Shown: one piece after another, positions 3,765 to 53,807 of the stretch
Numbering within the stretch: the first letter of the stretch is position 1
Layout of the letters: every line of letters begins with the position of its first letter
DNA from: an uncultured Clostridia bacterium
GTDB taxonomy: Bacteria > Bacillota > Clostridia > Christensenellales > CAG-917
DNA: 64,000 bases
Reading direction: 5' to 3'
Assembly (NCBI GenBank): GCA_934254715.1
Contig: CAKQLT010000001.1
Span: 4,095 to 68,094 of the forward strand
Position numbers and translations under genes: made by a program
The notes under the pieces: model-generated
The model's database searches: none
The model's input: the letters and a program-made list of their open reading frames with translations, nothing else
What the model was told of the DNA's origin: nothing

Positions 3765-3784
3765 GGACGTTTGCGCCAAAATAT

Positions 3785-3816
3785 TTGTCAAGCCATCTTG
3801 AAAAGATGGGTGACAA
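3785..3816 (-). terminator. probable guaA terminator
   Basis: On the minus strand the sequence reads ttgtcacccatctt-ttc-aagatggcttgacaa followed by atatttt. It sits immediately 3' of the guaA stop. Confidence 0.45.
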
Positions 3817-3841
3817 GTGTTTTGCATCCGGCGCAATTATA

Positions 3842-5365
3842 TTATTCCCATTCGATAGTCGCCGGGGGCTTCCCCGTCACATCATAGCACACGCGGCTTA
3901 TGCCTTTCACTTCGTTGACGATGCGCGACGCCATTTTCGTGAGCAAGTCGTATGGCAAGCGAGTGTATTCCGCCGTCATAAAGTCGGACGTGGTGACCGC
4001 TCTTATCACGACGACGTAGCCGTAGTTGCGGTAGTCGCCGATTACGCCGACCGATTTCGTGTCGGTGATGACTGCAAAATATTGGTCGGATTTGATTCCG
4101 CTTGCGGCGATTTCTTCACGCACGATTGCGTCCGCGTCGCGCAAGACGTCGAGTTTCTCTTTGGTTATTTCGCCGATAGTGCGGATTGAAAGTCCGGGAC
4201 CGGGGAAGGGTTGACGATTGACGAGATAGTCGGGCAAACCGAGTTTTTTGCCGATTATGCGCACTTCGTCTTTGAAAAGTCCGCGCAAGGGTTCGACAAG
4301 ACCCGTGAACGGCATATCTTTGGGCAAGCCGCCGACGTTGTGGTGGCTCTTGATGTTTGCCGAGTTGTTTGCGCCCGATTCGATGACGTCGGGATAAATC
4401 GTGCCTTGCGCAAGGAAGTCGTATCCCTTTTGCGCGTTTGCAACTTCCGCAAAAGTCTTTACAAATTCCTCGCCGATAATTTTTCTTTTGCGTTCGGGGT
4501 CGGTTACGCCTGCGATTTTGGAAAGGAATTTCTCGCTTGCGTCCACGACTTCGAGTTTGAGGGGAAGGGGCGCAAACGCTTCTTTGATTTGTTTGGTTTC
4601 GTCCTTGCGCATAAAGCCGTGGTCGACGTACACGCACAGAAGTTGGTCGGGAATGGCTTTGCTTATGAGAGCCGCCACGACTGAACTGTCAACGCCGCCC
4701 GAAAGACCGAGAAGAACTTTCTTGTCGCCGACTTTTTCGCGTATGAGTTTGATTTGGGTGTCGATGTAGTCGTCGAGCGAGTAGTCGCGCGTTGCGCCGC
4801 ACACGTTTATGACGAAGTTTTCAAGCACCTTGTTTCCGTTGAGCGAACGCTCGACTTCGGGGTGGAATTGTACGCCGTAAATATGTTTTTGCTCGTTTGC
4901 GATTGCCGCGCACGGACAATCCGACGTGGTTGCCACAACCTTGAATCCGTCGGGAACTTGCGCAACGTAGTCGGTGTGGCTCATAAGCATTTCTTCTTCG
5001 TCCGAAAGACCGTCGAAAATCGCGCAGTCGCCGATGAAAACTTTTGTTTGACCATACTCGCGCACCGTGCCTTCCTTTACGACGCCGCCGAAAGAGTGGG
5101 CGATGTACTGCATACCGTAGCATATGCCCAAAATGGGTACGCCCAAATCGAACACGGCTTTCGAGCAACGCGGCGAATTTTCGAGATAAACGCTGTTAGG
5201 TCCGCCCGTAAATATAATGCCGATAGGGTCGATTTCTTTGAGTTTTTCCTCTGAAATGCAAGACGGCTCGACGACGGAATACACGTTCATTCTGCGCACC
5301 GAGCGCGCGATGAGTTCCTTGTATTGTCCGCCGAAATCCAGAACGAGAATGGTTTGGTTTTTCAT
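3842..5365 (-). CDS. guaA: GMP synthase (glutamine-hydrolysing)
   Basis: There is an N-terminal amidotransferase region (GICYGMQ, FHPE), an ATP-pyrophosphatase SGGVDSS loop and a C-terminal GKPPATIEWE. The ORF-track start at 5545 is trimmed to the ATG at 5365 (MKNQTILVLDFGGQY), which is preceded by AGGAGA. Confidence 0.95.
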   Translation of the reverse strand: MKNQTILVLDFGGQYKELIARSVRRMNVYSVVEPSCISEEKLKEIDPIGIIFTGGPNSVYLENSPRCSKAVFDLGVPILGICYGMQYIAHSFGGVVKEGTVREYGQTKVFIGDCAIFDGLSDEEEMLMSHTDYVAQVPDGFKVVATTSDCPCAAIANEQKHIYGVQFHPEVERSLNGNKVLENFVINVCGATRDYSLDDYIDTQIKLIREKVGDKKVLLGLSGGVDSSVVAALISKAIPDQLLCVYVDHGFMRKDETKQIKEAFAPLPLKLEVVDASEKFLSKIAGVTDPERKRKIIGEEFVKTFAEVANAQKGYDFLAQGTIYPDVIESGANNSANIKSHHNVGGLPKDMPFTGLVEPLRGLFKDEVRIIGKKLGLPDYLVNRQPFPGPGLSIRTIGEITKEKLDVLRDADAIVREEIAASGIKSDQYFAVITDTKSVGVIGDYRNYGYVVVIRAVTTSDFMTAEYTRLPYDLLTKMASRIVNEVKGISRVCYDVTGKPPATIEWE

Positions 5366-5562
5366 ATGTTCTCCTACAAAGGTTAATTCGATATGTATAT
5401 ACAAAAGTTTTGACGTATATAAAAGATTATATCTAATTCTTCGCCCAAAGAAAAGCGGATTGTAAAACAAAATAGAATTAATGAAAAATAAATGTCGCGA
5501 GGATTTGCCGACCGAAACAAACGACGATTTGCTAAATATGACCAAAACGACGGTTTATATTG

Positions 5563-8842: not shown

Positions 8843-8854
8843 GGAATGAAAGCA

Positions 8855-8886
8855 AAAAAAAAGAAGGCGCAAGCCTTCTTTTTTTA
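8855..8886 (+). terminator. intrinsic terminator after the binding-protein gene
   Basis: gaaggc-gcaa-gccttc followed by ttttttt. Confidence 0.7.
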
Positions 8887-8937
8887 TGCCTTTTTTGAAA
8901 AAATGTTTATAAGAACAAAAAAGATTTTTTATCGCTC

Positions 8938-14560: not shown

Positions 14561-14637
14561 TGGCGTCCGTGATTGGAATCGAACCAACGGCGTTTCGCTT
14601 AGGAGGCGAACCCTCTATCCTACTGAGGTACACGGAC
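14561..14637 (-). tRNA. tRNA-Arg (anticodon CCT)
   Basis: Manual cloverleaf: acceptor GTCCGTG/CACGGAC, D stem CCTC/GAGG, anticodon stem TTCGC/GCGAA with loop CTCCTAA, T arm GTTGG-TTCGATT-CCAAT, and an encoded CCA. Confidence 0.9.
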
Positions 14638-14970: not shown

Positions 14971-15047
14971 CGGGGTATGGCGCAGTTTGGTAGCGCGCTT
15001 GACTGGGGGTCAAGAGGCCATGGGTTCAAGTCCCGTTACTCCGACCA
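14971..15047 (+). tRNA. tRNA-Pro (anticodon GGG)
   Basis: Manual cloverleaf: acceptor CGGGGTA/TACTCCG (one G-U pair), D stem GCGC/GCGC, anticodon stem CTTGA/TCAAG with loop CTGGGGG, T arm ATGGG-TTCAAGT-CCCGT, and an encoded CCA. Confidence 0.9.
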
Positions 15048-33675: not shown

Positions 33676-34341
33676 TTATTCTGCGGTGTTTTCGGAATTT
33701 TCGGCGTTATTCGTATTATCAGCGTTTTCGGTGTTTTTGGTTTCGTTTTCCTTTTTGTCTTTGGGTTTGCGGAAAACGACGAATTTTTGCCACATAAATT
33801 CAAGCGCGAAGTTGATTATCATAACCGTGCCTTCCGCGATTATGCCCGCGCCGTCCGCGCCGATTGCGTCCACGAGCAATGATTTTATCGTGTGGACGTA
33901 CCAAGTTTGGAAGGGATAGAAGGGAACGTAGAACAAAAACGCCAAAATCATCGCTTTTGGAACGTTGCCCGCGTCTTTGAAGGTAAACTTACGGTTGAAA
34001 GTGAAGTTCCAAAGGATAGAGGCGCAAAGCGCAACGGTCGTTGCGATAAACGTGACCAAATCCATATCTTCGACAATGAAGTGAATGGTTTTGCCGTTCG
34101 AGGGTATGACCGCTTGCAAAATCGAGAACAGCACGATTTGAATTATGCCCGCGCTCGCCGCGCAAAGGGCGTATTTTATGAACTGCATAACGCCTTTTCT
34201 CTTTTCTTTTTTGGCGTTTTTCTCGGCTTGTTTGAGGCTCGTTTCGTACAGTATGCCTTTGGGGGATTCCGCAGAAGATTCTTCCGTTTGGGGAACGGAT
34301 TTCGGTTCGGCGTTTTCGTTTAAGTTTTTATCTTGTTCCAT
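33676..34341 (-). CDS. GtrA-family membrane protein with low-complexity N- and C-terminal extensions
   Basis: Four TM helices with the NFTFNRKFTF motif typical of GtrA-like proteins. AGAGGAA ribosome-binding site. Confidence 0.8.
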   Translation of the reverse strand: MEQDKNLNENAEPKSVPQTEESSAESPKGILYETSLKQAEKNAKKEKRKGVMQFIKYALCAASAGIIQIVLFSILQAVIPSNGKTIHFIVEDMDLVTFIATTVALCASILWNFTFNRKFTFKDAGNVPKAMILAFLFYVPFYPFQTWYVHTIKSLLVDAIGADGAGIIAEGTVMIINFALEFMWQKFVVFRKPKDKKENETKNTENADNTNNAENSENTAE

Positions 34342-34543
34342 AATATTTTCCTCTAAACACAGTTTAACATAACGACGTGAAATGTCAATACCGCTTAAAG
34401 AATCTTTGCGCTTAAAAGGCGTTTTTGAGAAATATTTTTGATGATAAAGAAAAATAAAGATTGTGAAAATTAAAATTTTATAAAAATAAGTGTTTAGATG
34501 TGTGAAAAAATAGAGAAATAAAAAATAATGAAATTGTAAAATT

Positions 34544-34690
34544 AGGAATCAACTAAAAATGCGCCAAGCGGATGAATAACGCGAAAGCACCCCTCGATTG
34601 ACAACCCTAATTTACTGAGCGTAAATGAGTTGGCAAGCAAGGGGTGCTGACAAAGTTAGTCGCCGTTTGGCGCGTTTTTAGTTGATTCCT
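34544..34690 (+). other. 147-nt rod-like extended hairpin overlapping the gdhA stop (candidate structured RNA or hairpin-type repeat)
   Basis: A 28-bp closing stem (34544-34571 with 34663-34690). Its only two non-Watson-Crick positions are G-U on the plus strand and A-C on the minus strand. Inside it are a 15x15 internal loop, then stems gcacccct/aggggtgc, ttgacaac/gttggcaa and tttac/gtaaa, with the apical loop tgagc. Confidence 0.5.
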
Positions 34691-36024
34691 TGCGCAATCA
34701 TAGCGTCTGCTACCTTCTTAAATCCCGCAAGGTTTGCACCTTTGACGAGGTTGTAATCGAGACCGTACGCGTCGAGTGCGTCGCAGATTTGAGTGTGGAT
34801 ACCTTTCATAATTTGTTTGAGTTTTGCGTCCACTTCTTCTTTCGTCCAAGCAAGACGTTCGCTGTTTTGCGACATTTCGAGTCCGCTCGTCGCAACGCCG
34901 CCAGCGTTGACCGCTTTGGACGGGGTGACGAGAACGCCGTGTTCTTGCAAGTATGCGATTGCCTCGTTCGTGGTGGGCATATTGGAAACTTCGTTGAGGA
35001 CGGGTACGCCGAGTTTAACCATTGCGATTGCGTCGTCCAAAAGAACTTCGTTTTGTCTTGCGCAGGGCATATAGACGTCTGCTTTGACGTTGCCCCAAGG
35101 CTTCTTGCCCGCGACGAATTCGCAGCCGTATTTGTCGGAATAGTCTTGAACTCTGTTGCGGTTGGAAGCGCGCATTTCGAGCAAATAGTCGATCTTTTCG
35201 CCCGTTACGCCGTCCGGATCGTAAACGTATCCGTCGGGACCGGAAAGGGTGACGACCTTGCCGCCGAGTTCGTCGATTTTCTTTGCCGCGCCCCACGCGA
35301 CGTTGCCGAAACCGCTGAGGCAGAACGTTTTGCCCGCGAGGTGTTCGCCTTGATGTTTGAACACTTCGTCGAGGAAGTAGGTTGCGCCGAAACCGGTTGC
35401 TTCGGGACGAATGAGAGAGCCGCCGTAACTGAGGCCTTTTCCGGTGAGAACGCCGTTTTCGTAAGCACCGACGATTTTCTTATATTGACCGAACAGATAG
35501 CCGATTTCGCGACCGCCGACGCCCATATCGCCTGCGGGAACGTCCATATTCGGACCGATATGACGATAAAGTTCGTTCATAAAGGATTGGCAGAAACGCA
35601 TAATTTCGGAATCGCTCTTGCCGGTGGGGTCAAAGTCCGCGCCGCCCTTTGCGCCGCCCATAGGAAGGGAAGTGAGAGAGTTTTTGAAAGTTTGCTCGAA
35701 ACCGAGGAACTTCATAGCGTCGAGGTTGACGTCCTTTTGGAATCTCAAACCGCCTTTGTACGGTCCGATTGCGTTGTTGAATTGAACGCGGAAACCGCGA
35801 TTGACGTGATAATTGCCGTTGTCGTCCATCCAAGGAACGCGGAACATAATTTGTCTGTCGGGTTCTACGAGGCGTTCGAGAATGACGTTTTTGCGCATCA
35901 ACTGTTCGTTTTGTTCGATAGCGGGGGTCAAAGAGGTGAGAACTTCTTTGACGGTTTGCATAAATTGCGGCTGATTGGGGTTTTTCAATTCAGTCTGCTC
36001 TATGACTTCGCTGATGTATGACAT
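34678..36024 (-). CDS. gdhA: NADP-specific glutamate dehydrogenase
   Basis: The Glu/Leu/Phe/Val dehydrogenase active-site region LPMGGAKGGADFDP, the nucleotide-fold motif GFGNVAWGAA, and an AGGAGGA ribosome-binding site. Confidence 0.95.
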   Translation of the reverse strand: MSYISEVIEQTELKNPNQPQFMQTVKEVLTSLTPAIEQNEQLMRKNVILERLVEPDRQIMFRVPWMDDNGNYHVNRGFRVQFNNAIGPYKGGLRFQKDVNLDAMKFLGFEQTFKNSLTSLPMGGAKGGADFDPTGKSDSEIMRFCQSFMNELYRHIGPNMDVPAGDMGVGGREIGYLFGQYKKIVGAYENGVLTGKGLSYGGSLIRPEATGFGATYFLDEVFKHQGEHLAGKTFCLSGFGNVAWGAAKKIDELGGKVVTLSGPDGYVYDPDGVTGEKIDYLLEMRASNRNRVQDYSDKYGCEFVAGKKPWGNVKADVYMPCARQNEVLLDDAIAMVKLGVPVLNEVSNMPTTNEAIAYLQEHGVLVTPSKAVNAGGVATSGLEMSQNSERLAWTKEEVDAKLKQIMKGIHTQICDALDAYGLDYNLVKGANLAGFKKVADAMIAQGIN

Positions 36025-45250: not shown

Positions 45251-46633
45251 ATGCAAACGGACAGAAAAATGCAAAAAAACGACGATAAAAACATTGAAAA
45301 AAGCCCCGTTTTTGACGATAATTCGTGTGAAAACGCACAAGATTCTTCTTTGACTTGCGAGGTTTCCGCAACCGAGAAAACCGCCGATACGGAACTTTTG
45401 CAAGCGACAATCGCAGACGAGCAAGACGTTTGTGGCGAACGAGAAAATCGTTGCGAGCAAGACGTTTGCGACGAGAAGAAAGAGGGAATCTTGTCAGAGT
45501 ATTCCGCTCGCGAAAGCAAGGGTAAAAAGGCACTCGAAGTTGTCAAAAAGTACTGCAAACGCTACTTTATCGACGCGTTTTCGGGTATGGCGCAAGGCTT
45601 GTTCTGCACGCTCATCGCTGGCACTATTCTCGCTCAAATCGCGTCTTGGTGCGGCGACAATTCGTTTGCGCACGTCCTCGGTTACATCGCAAGCATTGCA
45701 AAAATGCTTATGGGCGCAGGAATCGGCATAGGTATCGCGCACAAGTTGGGCGCAAAACCGCTCGTGATATTCACAGCCGCCGTAACGGGTTTGGTCGGCG
45801 CGTTTTCGGGCAATCTTGTGAGCGCGCTCTGTCAAAACGCCTCGTTTACAATCGCTTTCGGCGCGGTCGGCAATCCTATCGGCGCGTACGTCGTGTCCCT
45901 TCTCACCGTTGAAATCGCCTCGCTTTACGCAGGAAAAACCAAACTCGATATAATCCTTATTCCGCTCGGAATGATGCTTATGTGTCTTGCGGGCATATTC
46001 GTTGCGTGGCCGTTTATCAAACTTATCGACTTGCTCGCCAAACTCATCGTGTTGGCAATCGAGGCGGGCGCGGCAGTCAAAATCATCGTCGGCGTGTTCG
46101 TTGCGGTGGTTATGGGCATTTTGCTCACTATGCCGACGTCTTCTGCGGCAATATGGGTTGCAATCGCTACAAGTGCGACGGCACTCGAAAACCCCGACGT
46201 ATTCGCAATCGCGGGCGGCGCGGCGGTTGCGGGTTGCTCGGCGCATATGATAGGTTTTGCCGTTGCGAGTTTCAGAGAAAACGGCGTGGGCGGACTCATT
46301 TCGCAAGGCGTAGGCACGAGTATGTTGCAAATTCCCAACATTATGAGAAAACCTGCGATTATGGTTCCCGAAATAGTCGCGAGCGCGGTGTGCGGACTTG
46401 TCGCCGTGCTTATGGGACTTCGTTGCAACGCTTCGGGCGGCGGAATGGGCACGAGCGGACTCGTCGGCGTATTCGGCACGATTGACGCATCGCTGGGCAT
46501 AATCCCCGACTGGCAACTCGGCGTAGGCATTGTGCTTTGTATGTTCGTGCTTCCCGCGACAATTTCGTTCGGCATAAGCGAACTTATGCGCAAGACCGGC
46601 GCAATAAAGTACGGTGACCAGAAGTTAGACTAA
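45251..46633 (+). CDS. PTS EIIC-like (PF13303-type) polytopic membrane protein with ~90-aa acidic N-terminal extension
   Basis: The YFIDAFSGMAQGLFCTLIAGTIL start of the membrane domain and the glycine-rich TM helices look like the orphan EIIC-like family. The real start is uncertain: a TTG at about 45491 preceded by AGAGGG is an alternative. Confidence 0.6.
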   Translation: MQTDRKMQKNDDKNIEKSPVFDDNSCENAQDSSLTCEVSATEKTADTELLQATIADEQDVCGERENRCEQDVCDEKKEGILSEYSARESKGKKALEVVKKYCKRYFIDAFSGMAQGLFCTLIAGTILAQIASWCGDNSFAHVLGYIASIAKMLMGAGIGIGIAHKLGAKPLVIFTAAVTGLVGAFSGNLVSALCQNASFTIAFGAVGNPIGAYVVSLLTVEIASLYAGKTKLDIILIPLGMMLMCLAGIFVAWPFIKLIDLLAKLIVLAIEAGAAVKIIVGVFVAVVMGILLTMPTSSAAIWVAIATSATALENPDVFAIAGGAAVAGCSAHMIGFAVASFRENGVGGLISQGVGTSMLQIPNIMRKPAIMVPEIVASAVCGLVAVLMGLRCNASGGGMGTSGLVGVFGTIDASLGIIPDWQLGVGIVLCMFVLPATISFGISELMRKTGAIKYGDQKLD

Positions 46634-46718: not shown

Positions 46719-46949
46719 TGATATCGCCTATGGCGGTGATATCACTTCGTGATGATATCGTGTATTTCTGCACGATGATATCCAAACTCTGTTTGGGTTG
46801 CGGAATATTCAATTTATCCGCTTGTCATTGCGAGGCGCAACGAAGTTGCAACGCGGCAATCGAGGCCGTCCGGCCGCATTTCGCTACACTGGATTCCTAC
46901 GGTCACTTCGTTCCCTCTGAATGACATATGGAAGATTTAAATATTCCGC
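46719..46949 (+). repeat. composite structured intergenic repeat, copy B
   Basis: Four units of tgatatc plus a hairpin (gcc-tat-ggc; tcac-ttc-gtga; tcgtg-tatttctg-cacga; ccaaac-tct-gtttgg). These are followed by gttgcggaatattcaattta, then tgtcattgcgagg...ccctctgaatgaca, closed by tttaaatattccgc (the reverse complement of gcggaatattYRaat). Confidence 0.6.
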
Positions 46950-47105: not shown

Positions 47106-48365
47106 TTATAGTTCAAACAATTTCTTTTTCTTTTTTGGTTCGATTGGCGTGCCGTCTTTTTTGACTTTGAGAGAGGGAAGATACACGTCGAACACCGTGC
47201 CTTTGCCCTCGATTCCGTGGCAATCTATTTCGCCGCAATGCGCTTTTACCGTTGCCGACGCTATGGACAAGCCGAGCCCGAAACTCTGATTATCCTTGTT
47301 TTGTCTTGCGCCGTCCGTGCGGTAGAATCTGTCAAAAACGTGCTTCGCGTCCTCTTTCGAGATACACTCGCCCGTGTTCATAACCGACAAATGTATGCGC
47401 TTCGAGTCAACGAACAACCTAACGCCCACTTTGCCGTTGTCGCCCGAATATTTGATTGCGTTGTCCAAGAGTATGACGACGAGGCGGTCGAGCGATTTGC
47501 TTTCGCCGTAAACGTGCAAGTCGGGTTGTACGTCGGTGAGCAGTTTTACGTCCTTTTCAAAGCAAGTCGCTTCAAATTCGAGGCACGCACCCTCGACGAT
47601 TTCGCTGAAATTTACGTCTTGTTTTTGAAGTTCGCTCTGTTCGAGTTTGCTAAGTTCCAGCATACTGTTCACAAGGTCGCGCATACGCACCAGTTGCGTA
47701 GATATGGAAGTTATCCACTTTTCGTTGTCCTTGACGGTGGAATCGGGTTCGCTCTTGATTACGCTGAGGTTGGTTGCGATAATCGTAAGCGGCGTTTTGA
47801 GTTCGTGCGAAGCGTTGGCGATGAGGTCGCGCTGTTTCGTCATTGCGGAAGCGACGGGGAACAGCAATCTTGCCGACGACAAAAGCGCGAGCAACGCCAC
47901 GAACACGACCGAGCAGCAGTAGAGCAACGTCACCATAATCGCGGTGTTTGCAAGTTGCTTGTGATAACTCGTGCGGTCGATGAGCGCATAGAGCGTGCCG
48001 TTTGTGTACTGTCTGTTTGCCACGACGAAGTGACAATCGTCGTACTCGAATTTTCCCTCGGCGGTGGAAATGGCTTTGAGGATAATTTCCGCCGCGTCGT
48101 CGCCGTATACGTCGACCTTGCCGTCGATGTACGGTTTTCTGCCGTCGTTATATTTGTAGATAAAGATACAGCGCAAGTCGTTTGCGACGTTGTCGTTGTA
48201 GTGTTCGGGGTCTTCCAAAGCCTTGTCGAGAGCCTTGTTTATGAACACGTCGTTCGAGCCGTACACAACGCCGAACAGACCGCCCAAAACCACAAGCAAA
48301 AATATTGCGGCTATGAGGGTGGTGGTGACGGTGTAGTTGATACGTTGTTTTCTGATTATGTCCAT
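47106..48365 (-). CDS. two-component sensor histidine kinase
   Basis: Two TM helices flank a periplasmic loop. H-box ASHELKTPLTII, plus N and G boxes (LLDNAIKYS, GLGLSIA). Confidence 0.9.
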   Translation of the reverse strand: MDIIRKQRINYTVTTTLIAAIFLLVVLGGLFGVVYGSNDVFINKALDKALEDPEHYNDNVANDLRCIFIYKYNDGRKPYIDGKVDVYGDDAAEIILKAISTAEGKFEYDDCHFVVANRQYTNGTLYALIDRTSYHKQLANTAIMVTLLYCCSVVFVALLALLSSARLLFPVASAMTKQRDLIANASHELKTPLTIIATNLSVIKSEPDSTVKDNEKWITSISTQLVRMRDLVNSMLELSKLEQSELQKQDVNFSEIVEGACLEFEATCFEKDVKLLTDVQPDLHVYGESKSLDRLVVILLDNAIKYSGDNGKVGVRLFVDSKRIHLSVMNTGECISKEDAKHVFDRFYRTDGARQNKDNQSFGLGLSIASATVKAHCGEIDCHGIEGKGTVFDVYLPSLKVKKDGTPIEPKKKKKLFEL

Positions 48366-53708: not shown

Positions 53709-53724
53709 TTTGAAACGTAACAAA

Positions 53725-53750
53725 AATCCGCCGAAAACGGCGGATTTTTT
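53725..53750 (+). terminator. fhs intrinsic terminator
   Basis: aatccgccg-aaaa-cggcggatt followed by tttt. Confidence 0.75.
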
Positions 53751-53807
53751 ATGCGTTTTTATATTCGTTTACGATGTTTTTTATGAGGCTTTATATTGAT
53801 TTTTATA

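Follow-up and report, generated by a model that had tools for sequence, protein, structure and literature searches.

Small palindromic repeats close to the ends of genes have been described in several bacterial groups. SPRITE, a terminator-like small interspersed repeat of Streptococcus pneumoniae, is ~105 nt long and has AAAA/TTTT termini (PMC3049150; PMC3184786); it lies close to the 3′ ends of coding sequences (CDS), is enriched between convergent genes, has neither a known duplication nor a known insertion sequence (IS) partner, has been proposed to be co-opted as a terminator, and shows a strand bias of ~63% (PMC3049150). ERIC, Correia/NEMIS, RUP, and bcr1 are miniature inverted-repeat transposable elements (MITEs) that form RNA hairpins in transcribed regions (reviewed in PMC3184786). 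The element considered here is a 147-nt hairpin at the 3′ end of gdhA in a 64,000-nt stretch of DNA (referred to as the window) from an uncultured Clostridia bacterium. This hairpin belongs to a dispersed family of non-coding palindromic repeats of ~127 nt that is found in uncultured human-gut Clostridia and whose copies sit in sense orientation on the stop codons of many different genes. Both the repeat family itself and its anchoring at stop codons are new; no description of it was found in the searchable literature by sequence strings or by clade and repeat terms.

Judged by description, SPRITE is the closest described analogue of the gdhA-type repeat. Both are non-coding repeats of ~100-130 nt with a long duplex, a U-rich tract, and A-run/T-run termini; both are found near the 3′ ends of CDSs with an enrichment between convergent genes, and in neither has a target-site duplication or an IS been identified. 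In contrast to SPRITE, the gdhA-type repeat occurs in gut Christensenellales-type Clostridia, has a GC content of ~45% (versus 28%), and forms a nested rod of greater length that contains two conserved blocks and covaries extensively. Its polarity relative to the host gene is nearly absolute (109 to 6, compared with ~63%), and it embeds the stop codon in an outer stem whose arms grow into the CDS. Sequence homology between the two is unlikely given the differences in clade and GC content.

The hairpin-forming MITEs share with the gdhA-type repeat a length of 100-170 nt, terminal inverted repeats, a multi-copy state, co-transcription, rod-like folds, and compensatory changes; at ~127 nt, the repeat is well within the size of a MITE (under ~300 bp), and like a MITE it is non-coding and multi-copy and has a terminal inverted-repeat consensus. 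However, those families have defined duplications (TA or 5 bp) and often a matching IS, and occur in both orientations at varied distances from genes, whereas the position of the gdhA-type repeat is nearly fixed at the stop codon. REP, BIME, and REPIN sequences, too, are extragenic palindromes past stop codons at the ends of transcription units, where they serve as stabilisers or partial terminators and, as doublets, form long hairpins. REP units, however, measure 20-40 nt, are tagged by GTAG or CGTC, and are associated with RAYT transposases, whereas neither tag is present in the consensus arms and blocks of the gdhA-type repeat, which has asymmetric conserved blocks; a REP/REPIN assignment was rejected on account of the missing tag and the unit length of ~127 nt. 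With canonical intrinsic (Rho-independent) terminators, among them bidirectional ones in which A- and U-tracts are paired, the repeat has in common a GC-rich stem that immediately follows the stop codon and lies between an A-tract on the 5′ side and a U-tract on the 3′ side, but its hairpin is 4-5 times the normal size and is repeated with a consensus of its own, and its U-tracts are short or interrupted.

A dispersed repeat anchored at stop codons

A gene-sense 20-mer from the conserved 5′ block (GCGACTAACTTYGKCAGCRC) had 26 matches in GTDB genomes, up to four per genome, and the matching genomes are labelled Christensenella sp. or uncultured Clostridia/Clostridiales. A pattern made of two conserved blocks matched at least 120 stretches of metagenome contigs, almost all from the human gut. 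With a covariance model derived from 21 copies, 112 hits were confirmed in 80 loci among the pattern matches listed, and extra copies were also found in the fetched loci (designated L001 and so on), including tandem and convergent ones. At least 174 copies, 158 of them unique, were collected from gut Christensenellales-type genomes and human-gut metagenomes, and the extracted copies all fold into the same rod. The plasmid and phage collections contained no match to the family; two pattern matches in viral contigs were attributed to chance because the covariance model did not confirm them.

Position-weight matrices from 153 copies showed that the flanks of a 93-nt core are conserved out to -17 and +17 but no further. 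The outer stem (P1) corresponds to a 17-nt terminal inverted repeat with the consensus TAAAAccGCGCTATTkA for the 5′ arm and TmAATAtCGCggTTTTa for the 3′ arm, that is, an A-tract, a GC core, and a UAUUKA-type foot, the mirrored side ending in UUUU. The core begins with a 5′ block of the consensus GCGA(C/A)UA(A/G)C plus ~9 nt more and ends with a 3′ block of the consensus (C)UUUYYNKG(U/C)U(A/C)UUCAUC; between these two conserved blocks lies a rod of ~57 nt with a GC-rich base and three stems. The copy in the window belongs to the rarer type 1 (GCGACUAAC … GUUAUUCAUC). Its parts and immediate surroundings are as follows.

34678-36024, minus strand: gdhA, 448 aa with ELFV dehydrogenase domains, the host gene bearing the element at its 3′ end.
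34544-34690, minus strand: whole hairpin of this strain, 147 nt, consisting of the family repeat and a lineage-specific 10-bp extension of the outer stem, as defined by the inverted repeat, folds, and covariance model.
34554-34680, minus strand: repeat unit proper, ~127 nt (17-nt 5′ arm, 93-nt core, 17-nt 3′ arm), the span of the family consensus.
34664-34680, minus strand: P1 5′ arm, TAAAAACGCGCCAAACG, whose first three bases are the gdhA stop codon TAA (34678-34680).
34554-34570, minus strand: P1 3′ arm, CGCTTGGCGCATTTTTA, ending in UUUUU and bearing both strain-specific transitions (the "wobbles" discussed below).
34681-34690, minus strand: last 10 nt of the gdhA CDS, A GGA ATC AAC, encoding G-I-N and drawn into the stem in the window lineage.
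34544-34553, minus strand: GTTGATTCCT, a lineage-specific continuation of the 3′ arm that is exactly reverse-complementary to the gdhA codons.
34646-34663, minus strand: conserved 5′ block, type 1, GCGACUAACUUUGUCAGC, which includes a UAA able to be in frame.
34589-34645, minus strand: rod (P2-P4) with covarying stems, a conserved U.G wobble on the sense strand, and the apical loop at 34616-34620, ~-34 kcal/mol.
34571-34588, minus strand: pyrimidine-rich conserved 3′ block, GCUUUCGCGUUAUUCAUC, a U-rich tail that follows the rod directly in the sense orientation only.
34361-34388, minus strand: promoter-like site (TTGACA, 16 nt, TAAACT, with TG) for the downstream GtrA-like gene (33676-34341).

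In the alignment of 102 copies to the model, 94.6% of the cells are paired and both sides have changed in 36 of 43 pairs; the covariation score is 0.641, compared with 0.164 for shuffled and at most 0.12 for slid partners. The first-pass annotation of the window had placed a symmetric 15x15-nt internal loop within the stem. The region as such is present, but it is partly paired in the minimum free energy (MFE) folds of both strands (GA/UC, UAAC/GUUA, and UG/CG), and three alignment pairs inside it covary (27-122, 30-119, and 31-118, the last being A-U in 75 copies and G-C in 23). Thus, the two blocks form an irregular helix and not a bubble. The U.G pair at columns 61-87, which is a wobble when read in sense and whose neighbouring pairs covary heavily, is conserved in 90 of the 102 copies. 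Family-wide, the 3′ block consists of 55% U and 30% C (85% pyrimidine), and the 9 nt after the rod (~-32 kcal/mol) contain 4.9 U in the sense but 1.9 U in the antisense orientation.

The 5′ side of the element coincides with the end of a same-strand open reading frame (ORF) with 100 or more codons in 109 of 153 unique copies, whereas the mirrored antisense test yielded 6. Tandem-array followers account for 20 of the remaining 44 copies; the majority of the others either lie behind ORFs of 55-99 codons or extend past the contig end. Where two copies converge (L015, L012), each is oriented with its own gene, so polarity follows transcription and not replication. Between the end of the stop codon and the 5′ block there are 12 or 14 nt in 66 copies, 11-16 nt in 86, and 0-9 nt in some, the commonest spacing being 14 nt (40 of 109 copies), as at gdhA. 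When the stop codon is 11-16 nt from the block, it is fully paired with the 3′ arm in 75 of the 86 copies (30 expected), and where the host gene ends with TGA, the partner in the 3′ arm is TCA. As to the choice of stop codon, TAA, TGA, and TAG terminate 84, 23, and 2 host ORFs, respectively, compared with 552, 591, and 141 of the background long ORFs at the same loci (TAA, 77% versus 43%; TAG, 2 of 109 versus ~11%). This bias may reflect that the A-tract of the element supplies or selects TAA. In seven copies, the ORF ends at the UAA inside the 5′ block, with the C-termini …ALFGE or …ALLSE. Host ORFs that lack a stop codon of their own read through the 5′ arm to the UAA/UAG of the block (L052, L056, L072, L121 [UvrA], L095, L107 [SSB-like], L150, and others) and acquire tails such as …(K)(N/T)ALFGE or …ALLSE; the 5′ 25 nt of many variants contain stops in all three frames (TAA at -17, TGA/TAG at about -3/-2, TAA at +5).

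About 60 different host genes carry the element. Those annotated (20, plus gdhA) are nearly all housekeeping genes, unrelated to one another and in many cases highly expressed: they function in central metabolism (gdhA, GAPDH, FBP aldolase, Fe-hydrogenase, glycogen phosphorylase), translation (EF-G, EF-P, ribosomal protein L1, Obg, LysRS, ProRS), nucleotide metabolism (GMP synthase, UPRTase), and DNA maintenance, stress response, or transport (UvrA, SSB, rubrerythrin, ABC transporters). Among the 82 downstream neighbours found, 39 are convergent and 43 co-directional, the latter with a median gap of 372 nt, a layout which fits a position of the element at the ends of transcription units. The GMP synthase gene of the window (3842-5545, stop codon at 3842-3844) is followed by a 66-nt nested hairpin on the minus strand (3771-3836; TTGCGCCGG…CTTGTCA-CCCATCTT…AAGATGG-CTTGACAA…TTGGCGCAA; -25 kcal/mol, z -3.7), at the place where the orthologous guaA genes in L077 and L129 have full-length elements. 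This hairpin could be a remnant or short relative of the family, or simply the native terminator.

The gdhA copy and the probable growth of its arms

The arms of the gdhA hairpin (34544-34571 and 34663-34690) form a 28-nt inverted repeat with 91 nt spacing that is 93% complementary, at exactly the place given in the first-pass annotation. The sole two non-Watson-Crick positions are also as described there: read on the plus strand they are U-G and G-U, whereas the minus strand has A-C at both. The three further inner stems it had listed (gcacccct/aggggtgc, ttgacaac/gttggcaa, and tttac/gtaaa) are all present. The right arm, read there as the codons for Q-G-I-N plus the stop codon, includes the stop codon TAA (34678-34680), the G-I-N codons, and one base of the Q codon. 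All 147 nt fold with -80.4 kcal/mol on the plus strand (z -12.95) and with -76.9 kcal/mol on the minus strand (z -11.35), in either case with 0 of 200 shuffles as good. The covariance model gives 139.5 bits for the minus (gene-sense) and 52.8 bits for the plus strand. A second copy was not found in the 64-kb window, even with the filters of the covariance model switched off, the weak matches being ordinary terminators. Searching the whole window against Rfam at the gathering score gave no match at the hairpin, and the region 34300-34800 at E <= 10 gave solely a chance match to snoR29 at another place.

Looking up the exact GdhA protein yielded six gut-metagenome contigs (L001-L006), which were aligned, and to which L022 was added later. 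L001 is identical to the window. The hairpin is also present in L002, L004, and L022, where the 3′ arm reads CGTTTGGCGCGTTTTTA and pairs perfectly with the 5′ arm (the fully paired reading of the 3′ arm is also given as CCGTTTGGCGCGTTTTTAG). Both "wobbles" are therefore Watson-Crick pairs in the sister strains, and the two transitions are private to the window lineage. The end of the complementarity differs, too: in L002, L004, and L022, it ends at CTAAAAA/TTTTTAG, followed by AATTTTT, whereas the window lineage (the window and L001) has TTGATTCCT (9 nt), absent from those three strains, and then AATTTT. The G of the extension GTTGATTCCT is common to the sister strains, only the subsequent 9 nt being lineage-restricted. 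The codon-copying part of the arm has thus been added in this lineage only, which fits a templated insertion of 9 nt; the spacer past the extension, which is AT-rich, is too diverged to prove a clean indel. L003 encodes the same GdhA, including the C-terminal QGIN, without the long element; hence, these codons belong to the gene itself, and it is the opposite arm that was copied from them. Contigs L005 and L006 end inside the element, as assemblers break at repeats.

In place of the long element, gdhA of L003 is followed by a 78-nt nested hairpin (4342-4420; -37.6 kcal/mol, z -8.5), in which the stop codon and the codon before it are again part of the outer stem (12 bp; AACUGAAAAUCA/UGAUUUUCAGUU). 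Its further features are a GCGA/UCGC clamp and a tail rich in U, and a second copy lies ~190 nt downstream, which suggests a shorter sister family with the same stop-codon-embedding layout. Several contigs with near-identical gdhA ends and elements (among L008, L011, L013, L014, and L022) are labelled Phascolarctobacterium succinatutens, Butyrivibrio crossotus, or Anaeroplasmataceae, others Christensenella or Clostridiales; the metagenome-assembled genome bins behind the discordant labels are probably contaminated or mislabelled.

The remark in the first-pass annotation that one arm copies the 3′ end of gdhA as its reverse complement is correct, and such copying turned out to recur across the family. 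Past the 17-nt consensus, the 3′ arm complements whatever lies 5′ of the element, i.e., the stop codon and then 0-17 nt of CDS. Clear long extensions were observed behind about 12-15 unrelated genes among the copies with the stop codon 11-16 nt from the block, e.g., those for an ABC transporter (L011, L019, L027) and an FtsX-type permease (L021, L009), guaA (L077), and fba (L147). The same gene can carry different arms (L028 versus L032 behind lysS; L021 versus L009), and where the ABC-transporter gene shows a synonymous ctc/ctt difference, the arm shows the matching gag/aag. With the coding side native and under constraint, it must be the intergenic side that was copied. The simplest, and the probable, mechanism is fold-back or template-switch mutation, a well-known process by which the inverted repeats of quasi-palindromes become longer and more perfect. 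The copy of the gdhA codons would then reflect lineage-specific, templated outward growth of the palindrome rather than a designed antisense feature; fold-back or template-switch copying during DNA synthesis would overwrite only the unconstrained intergenic side. Alternatively, the codons may be copied during insertion itself.

The behaviour of the family is that of a dispersed repeat. Near-identical cores occur behind unrelated genes within one genome (L014, L015, L019, L023), modules have been shuffled between copies (L017), and tandem arrays of two or three units are common (also in L009, L021, L030, L039, L055, and L058), the outer stems of the followers usually being degenerate. L091 (8400-8800) and L116 (3225-3330) are 100% identical upstream and differ by two whole units. 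Both of these arrays end in a truncated 5′ half-element fused to a canonical terminator. A TA target-site duplication inside the stop codon, as the gdhA copies (…TTTTTAG…) might indicate, is not supported across the family: there is no A/G preference at +18, and hosts with TGA have TCA partners.

Possible roles and competing explanations

The polarity of 109:6, the conserved U.G pair, the pyrimidine-rich 3′ block, and the model scores (139 versus 53 bits) all point to the gene-sense strand, and the sense orientation on the stop codon implies that the element is transcribed as the 3′ end of the mRNA, in this case of the gdhA mRNA from the minus strand. The number of wobbles does not contribute: with the conserved U.G pair set aside, there are 56 G.U and 62 A.C on the gene-sense strand of the 102 aligned copies. 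An excess of sense-strand G.U (~3:1 on RNAfold structures, and alike in an alignment of 21 sequences) was withdrawn in view of these numbers.

The gdhA-type repeat is probably, though by no means certainly, a MITE/SPRITE-like repeat that acts as a sense-oriented terminator or 3′-end hairpin module, where it is both the action and the manner of spreading that we infer. The rod together with the U-rich 3′ block would constitute a one-way intrinsic terminator and/or a barrier to 3′-exonucleases. In the window, the P1 stem with its UUUUU run could serve as a backup or second terminator, while P1 as such would mainly reflect the origin as a mobile unit of the MITE/SPRITE kind; an outer stem made of an A-tract, a GC core, and UUUU may pass for a bidirectional-type terminator stem and for a terminal inverted repeat alike. 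The downstream gene has a promoter-like site of its own, so the gdhA transcription unit should end before 34388. No other terminator-like structure lies between gdhA and this site (34388-34361), which leaves the element as the only candidate for ending the gdhA transcript.

Several observations weigh against this interpretation. In L008, L012, L013, L023, and L026, a canonical terminator follows 30-50 nt further downstream, so the element is not in every case the sole terminator, and termination at it may be partial; it may just as plausibly serve to protect the 3′ end. P1 is followed by a short U-tract (~4 U, then A-rich sequence) and the tail after the rod of the type-1 copy in the window is only moderately U-rich (UUUCGCGUUAUU), both being weaker than the tails of canonical terminators in the window (e.g., 8849-8892 and 53713-53758). 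A function in termination alone does not fully explain the near-absence of antisense and stop-distal insertions. The covariation may stem from arm-to-arm correction at the level of DNA instead of selection at the level of RNA, a possibility which arises from the lack of a G.U excess over A.C. Furthermore, the antisense strand folds better by 3.6 kcal/mol on average; as this advantage results from the energies of G.A versus C.U mismatches, it was not used for strand assignment. As for mobility, no target-site duplication was found, the flanks being inverted complements in which a palindromic TA would be invisible. The 1.3 Mb of loci contained no autonomous element with the same ends, nor a pair of 5′ and 3′ ends 300-4000 nt apart that enclosed an ORF; end pairs in these loci are tandem arrays only. 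No clean empty site was present among the loci compared, most apparent ones being block variants, and that of L003 containing the shorter hairpin.

Canonical terminators were found downstream of 2 of 108 elements and 37 of 628 control ORFs, too few in either set to be informative. Simple hairpins with a tail of the 3′-block type (e.g., AAGAAAGACACGC…GCGTGTCTTTCTTGTTCTTCATC) lie ~20 nt past the gdhA elements of L013 and L026, and hairpins with the same tail also lie upstream of element matches in L010, L028, L029, and L032. The CUUUCUUGUUCUUCAUC tail therefore travels with ordinary-sized terminator hairpins, too.

The alternative that survives best is a selfish or neutral miniature mobile element without any role for the host, which we regard as possible but unlikely. 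Its siting at stop codons would result from targeted insertion (into TA/TAAAA or terminator hairpins) and purging elsewhere, and its structure would be what the transposase needs, possibly as single-stranded DNA. The terminal inverted repeats, the multi-copy state with near-identical cores behind unrelated genes, the tandem arrays, and the polymorphism between strains would be accounted for in this way, as would the lack of a G.U excess, which is expected if pairing is maintained at the DNA level. Enrichment of TAA and depletion of TAG among the host stop codons fit a sequence-specific target or an A-tract supplied by the element. However, neither a direct target-site duplication nor an autonomous partner was found (1.3 Mb of flanking DNA), and a neutral element should occur further downstream as well and in both orientations, whereas the ratio is 109 to 6 and nearly all copies touch the stop codon. 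The conserved U.G pair and the pyrimidine-rich tail, moreover, suggest a strand-specific constraint.

Rather doubtful, in our view, is the more far-reaching notion that the repeat represents a new class, a stop-anchored palindrome whose outer stem arises by copying the terminal codons of each host gene. This would imply either a hitherto undescribed copy-choice (fold-back template-switch) spreading which homes to stop codons, or an RNA device that couples translation termination to 3′-end formation or decay of highly expressed mRNAs in gut Christensenellales.

Translation-coupled control of the 3′ end appears improbable. In this case, sequestration of the stop and last codons in P1 would tune the output of the host gene, either because the ribosome must melt P1 or because cleavage of the duplex (at least 20 bp) by RNase III removes the stop codon and leads to trans-translation. 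In E. coli, REP hairpins within ~15 nt of the stop codon do reduce translation, and a hairpin cut by RNase III creates the non-stop arfA mRNA. The pairing of the stop codon (75 of 86 copies versus 30 expected), its position 11-16 nt before the block, which is about one ribosome footprint, and the recurrence of CDS extensions at many genes are in line with such a mechanism. If transcription terminates after the rod, however, the 3′ arm of P1 is never made, and P1 exists only in read-through RNA. The length of the extension (0-17 nt) differs between close strains and looks mutational rather than tuned, and the hosts are unrelated housekeeping genes with no obvious need for common control.

Even less probable is a recombination site that folds as single-stranded DNA, of the attC or REP/RAYT kind, by which a recombinase would exchange gene ends. 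Like attC sites, which are imperfect palindromes of 60-140 nt in sense orientation that overlap the stop codon of an ORF and conserve structure over sequence, the gdhA-type repeat sits sense on the stop codon, with variable complementary outer sequence and conserved unpaired or mismatched positions; the triplets AAC and GTT are found in its two blocks. These motifs are internal, though, whereas the outer ends of the repeat are A/T tracts without R′′/R′ core sites, the consensus lacks the REP tag GTAG/CGTC, and the hosts are dispersed core housekeeping genes instead of cassette arrays, with no integrase context. An assignment to attC was rejected because R′′ (RYYYAAC) and R′ (GTTRRRY) are not at the outer ends, the GTTGATT box is missing in the sister strains L002, L004, and L022, and the hosts are dispersed.

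Finally, the proposal of the first-pass annotation, a rod-like regulatory RNA of ~150 nt (6S-like or other) from the plus strand and antisense to the 3′ end of gdhA, is highly improbable: although both non-Watson-Crick pairs of the window copy are G.U on the plus strand, antisense folds are slightly better family-wide, and the conserved C.U mismatches of the sense strand become G.A in antisense, the wobble asymmetry taken as a sign of selection is strain-specific, with both positions Watson-Crick in L002, L004, and L022, there is no such asymmetry in the family, the single wobble that is conserved lies on the sense strand, the polarity is that of the host gene (109 versus 6), the sole plus-strand promoter candidate is an unconvincing 9-of-12 match (GTGAAA-16-AATAAT, 34502-34529), and a multi-copy repeat behind ~60 unrelated genes is ill-suited to gene-specific antisense control. 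The likeness to 6S RNA in particular is loose and visual only (closing stem, irregular centre, terminal stem). The 6S reading was rejected, as there is no Rfam match, even at E <= 10, and no open bubble, the supposed centre being largely helical, and each copy abuts the stop codon of a different gene; unlike 6S RNA, the repeat is multi-copy, has no gene of its own, and lies on the host mRNA strand. By the account of the annotation itself, many copies elsewhere would refute its proposal. Such copies exist, and its fallback, either a MITE of the hairpin type or a terminator of unusual size, is supported.

The family is abundant in poorly studied, health-associated bacteria of the human gut and absent from Rfam; its annotation would avert hundreds of false calls of "novel small RNAs" and explain contig breaks at gene ends. 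If the rod with its pyrimidine tail works as a one-way terminator, the copies behind glycolytic, translation-factor, and gdhA genes would be natural, portable gene-end modules. The repeated capture of the stop and last codons provides a clean natural data set for templated palindrome growth, which could also reveal the effects of stop-codon hairpins on translation termination and the fate of the mRNA.

Two further features of the window concern neither gdhA nor the repeat. The Rfam matches are limited to two divergent tRNA genes, at 14564-14637 (minus strand) and 14971-15044 (plus strand). A second imperfect inverted repeat of ~150 nt is located at 46800-46949 (36-nt arms, 75% complementary; -57.3 kcal/mol, z -5.0), in the intergenic region of the ORFs 45251-46633 (plus strand) and 47106-48365 (minus strand); its sequence is unrelated to the gdhA element and has no match to the covariance model.

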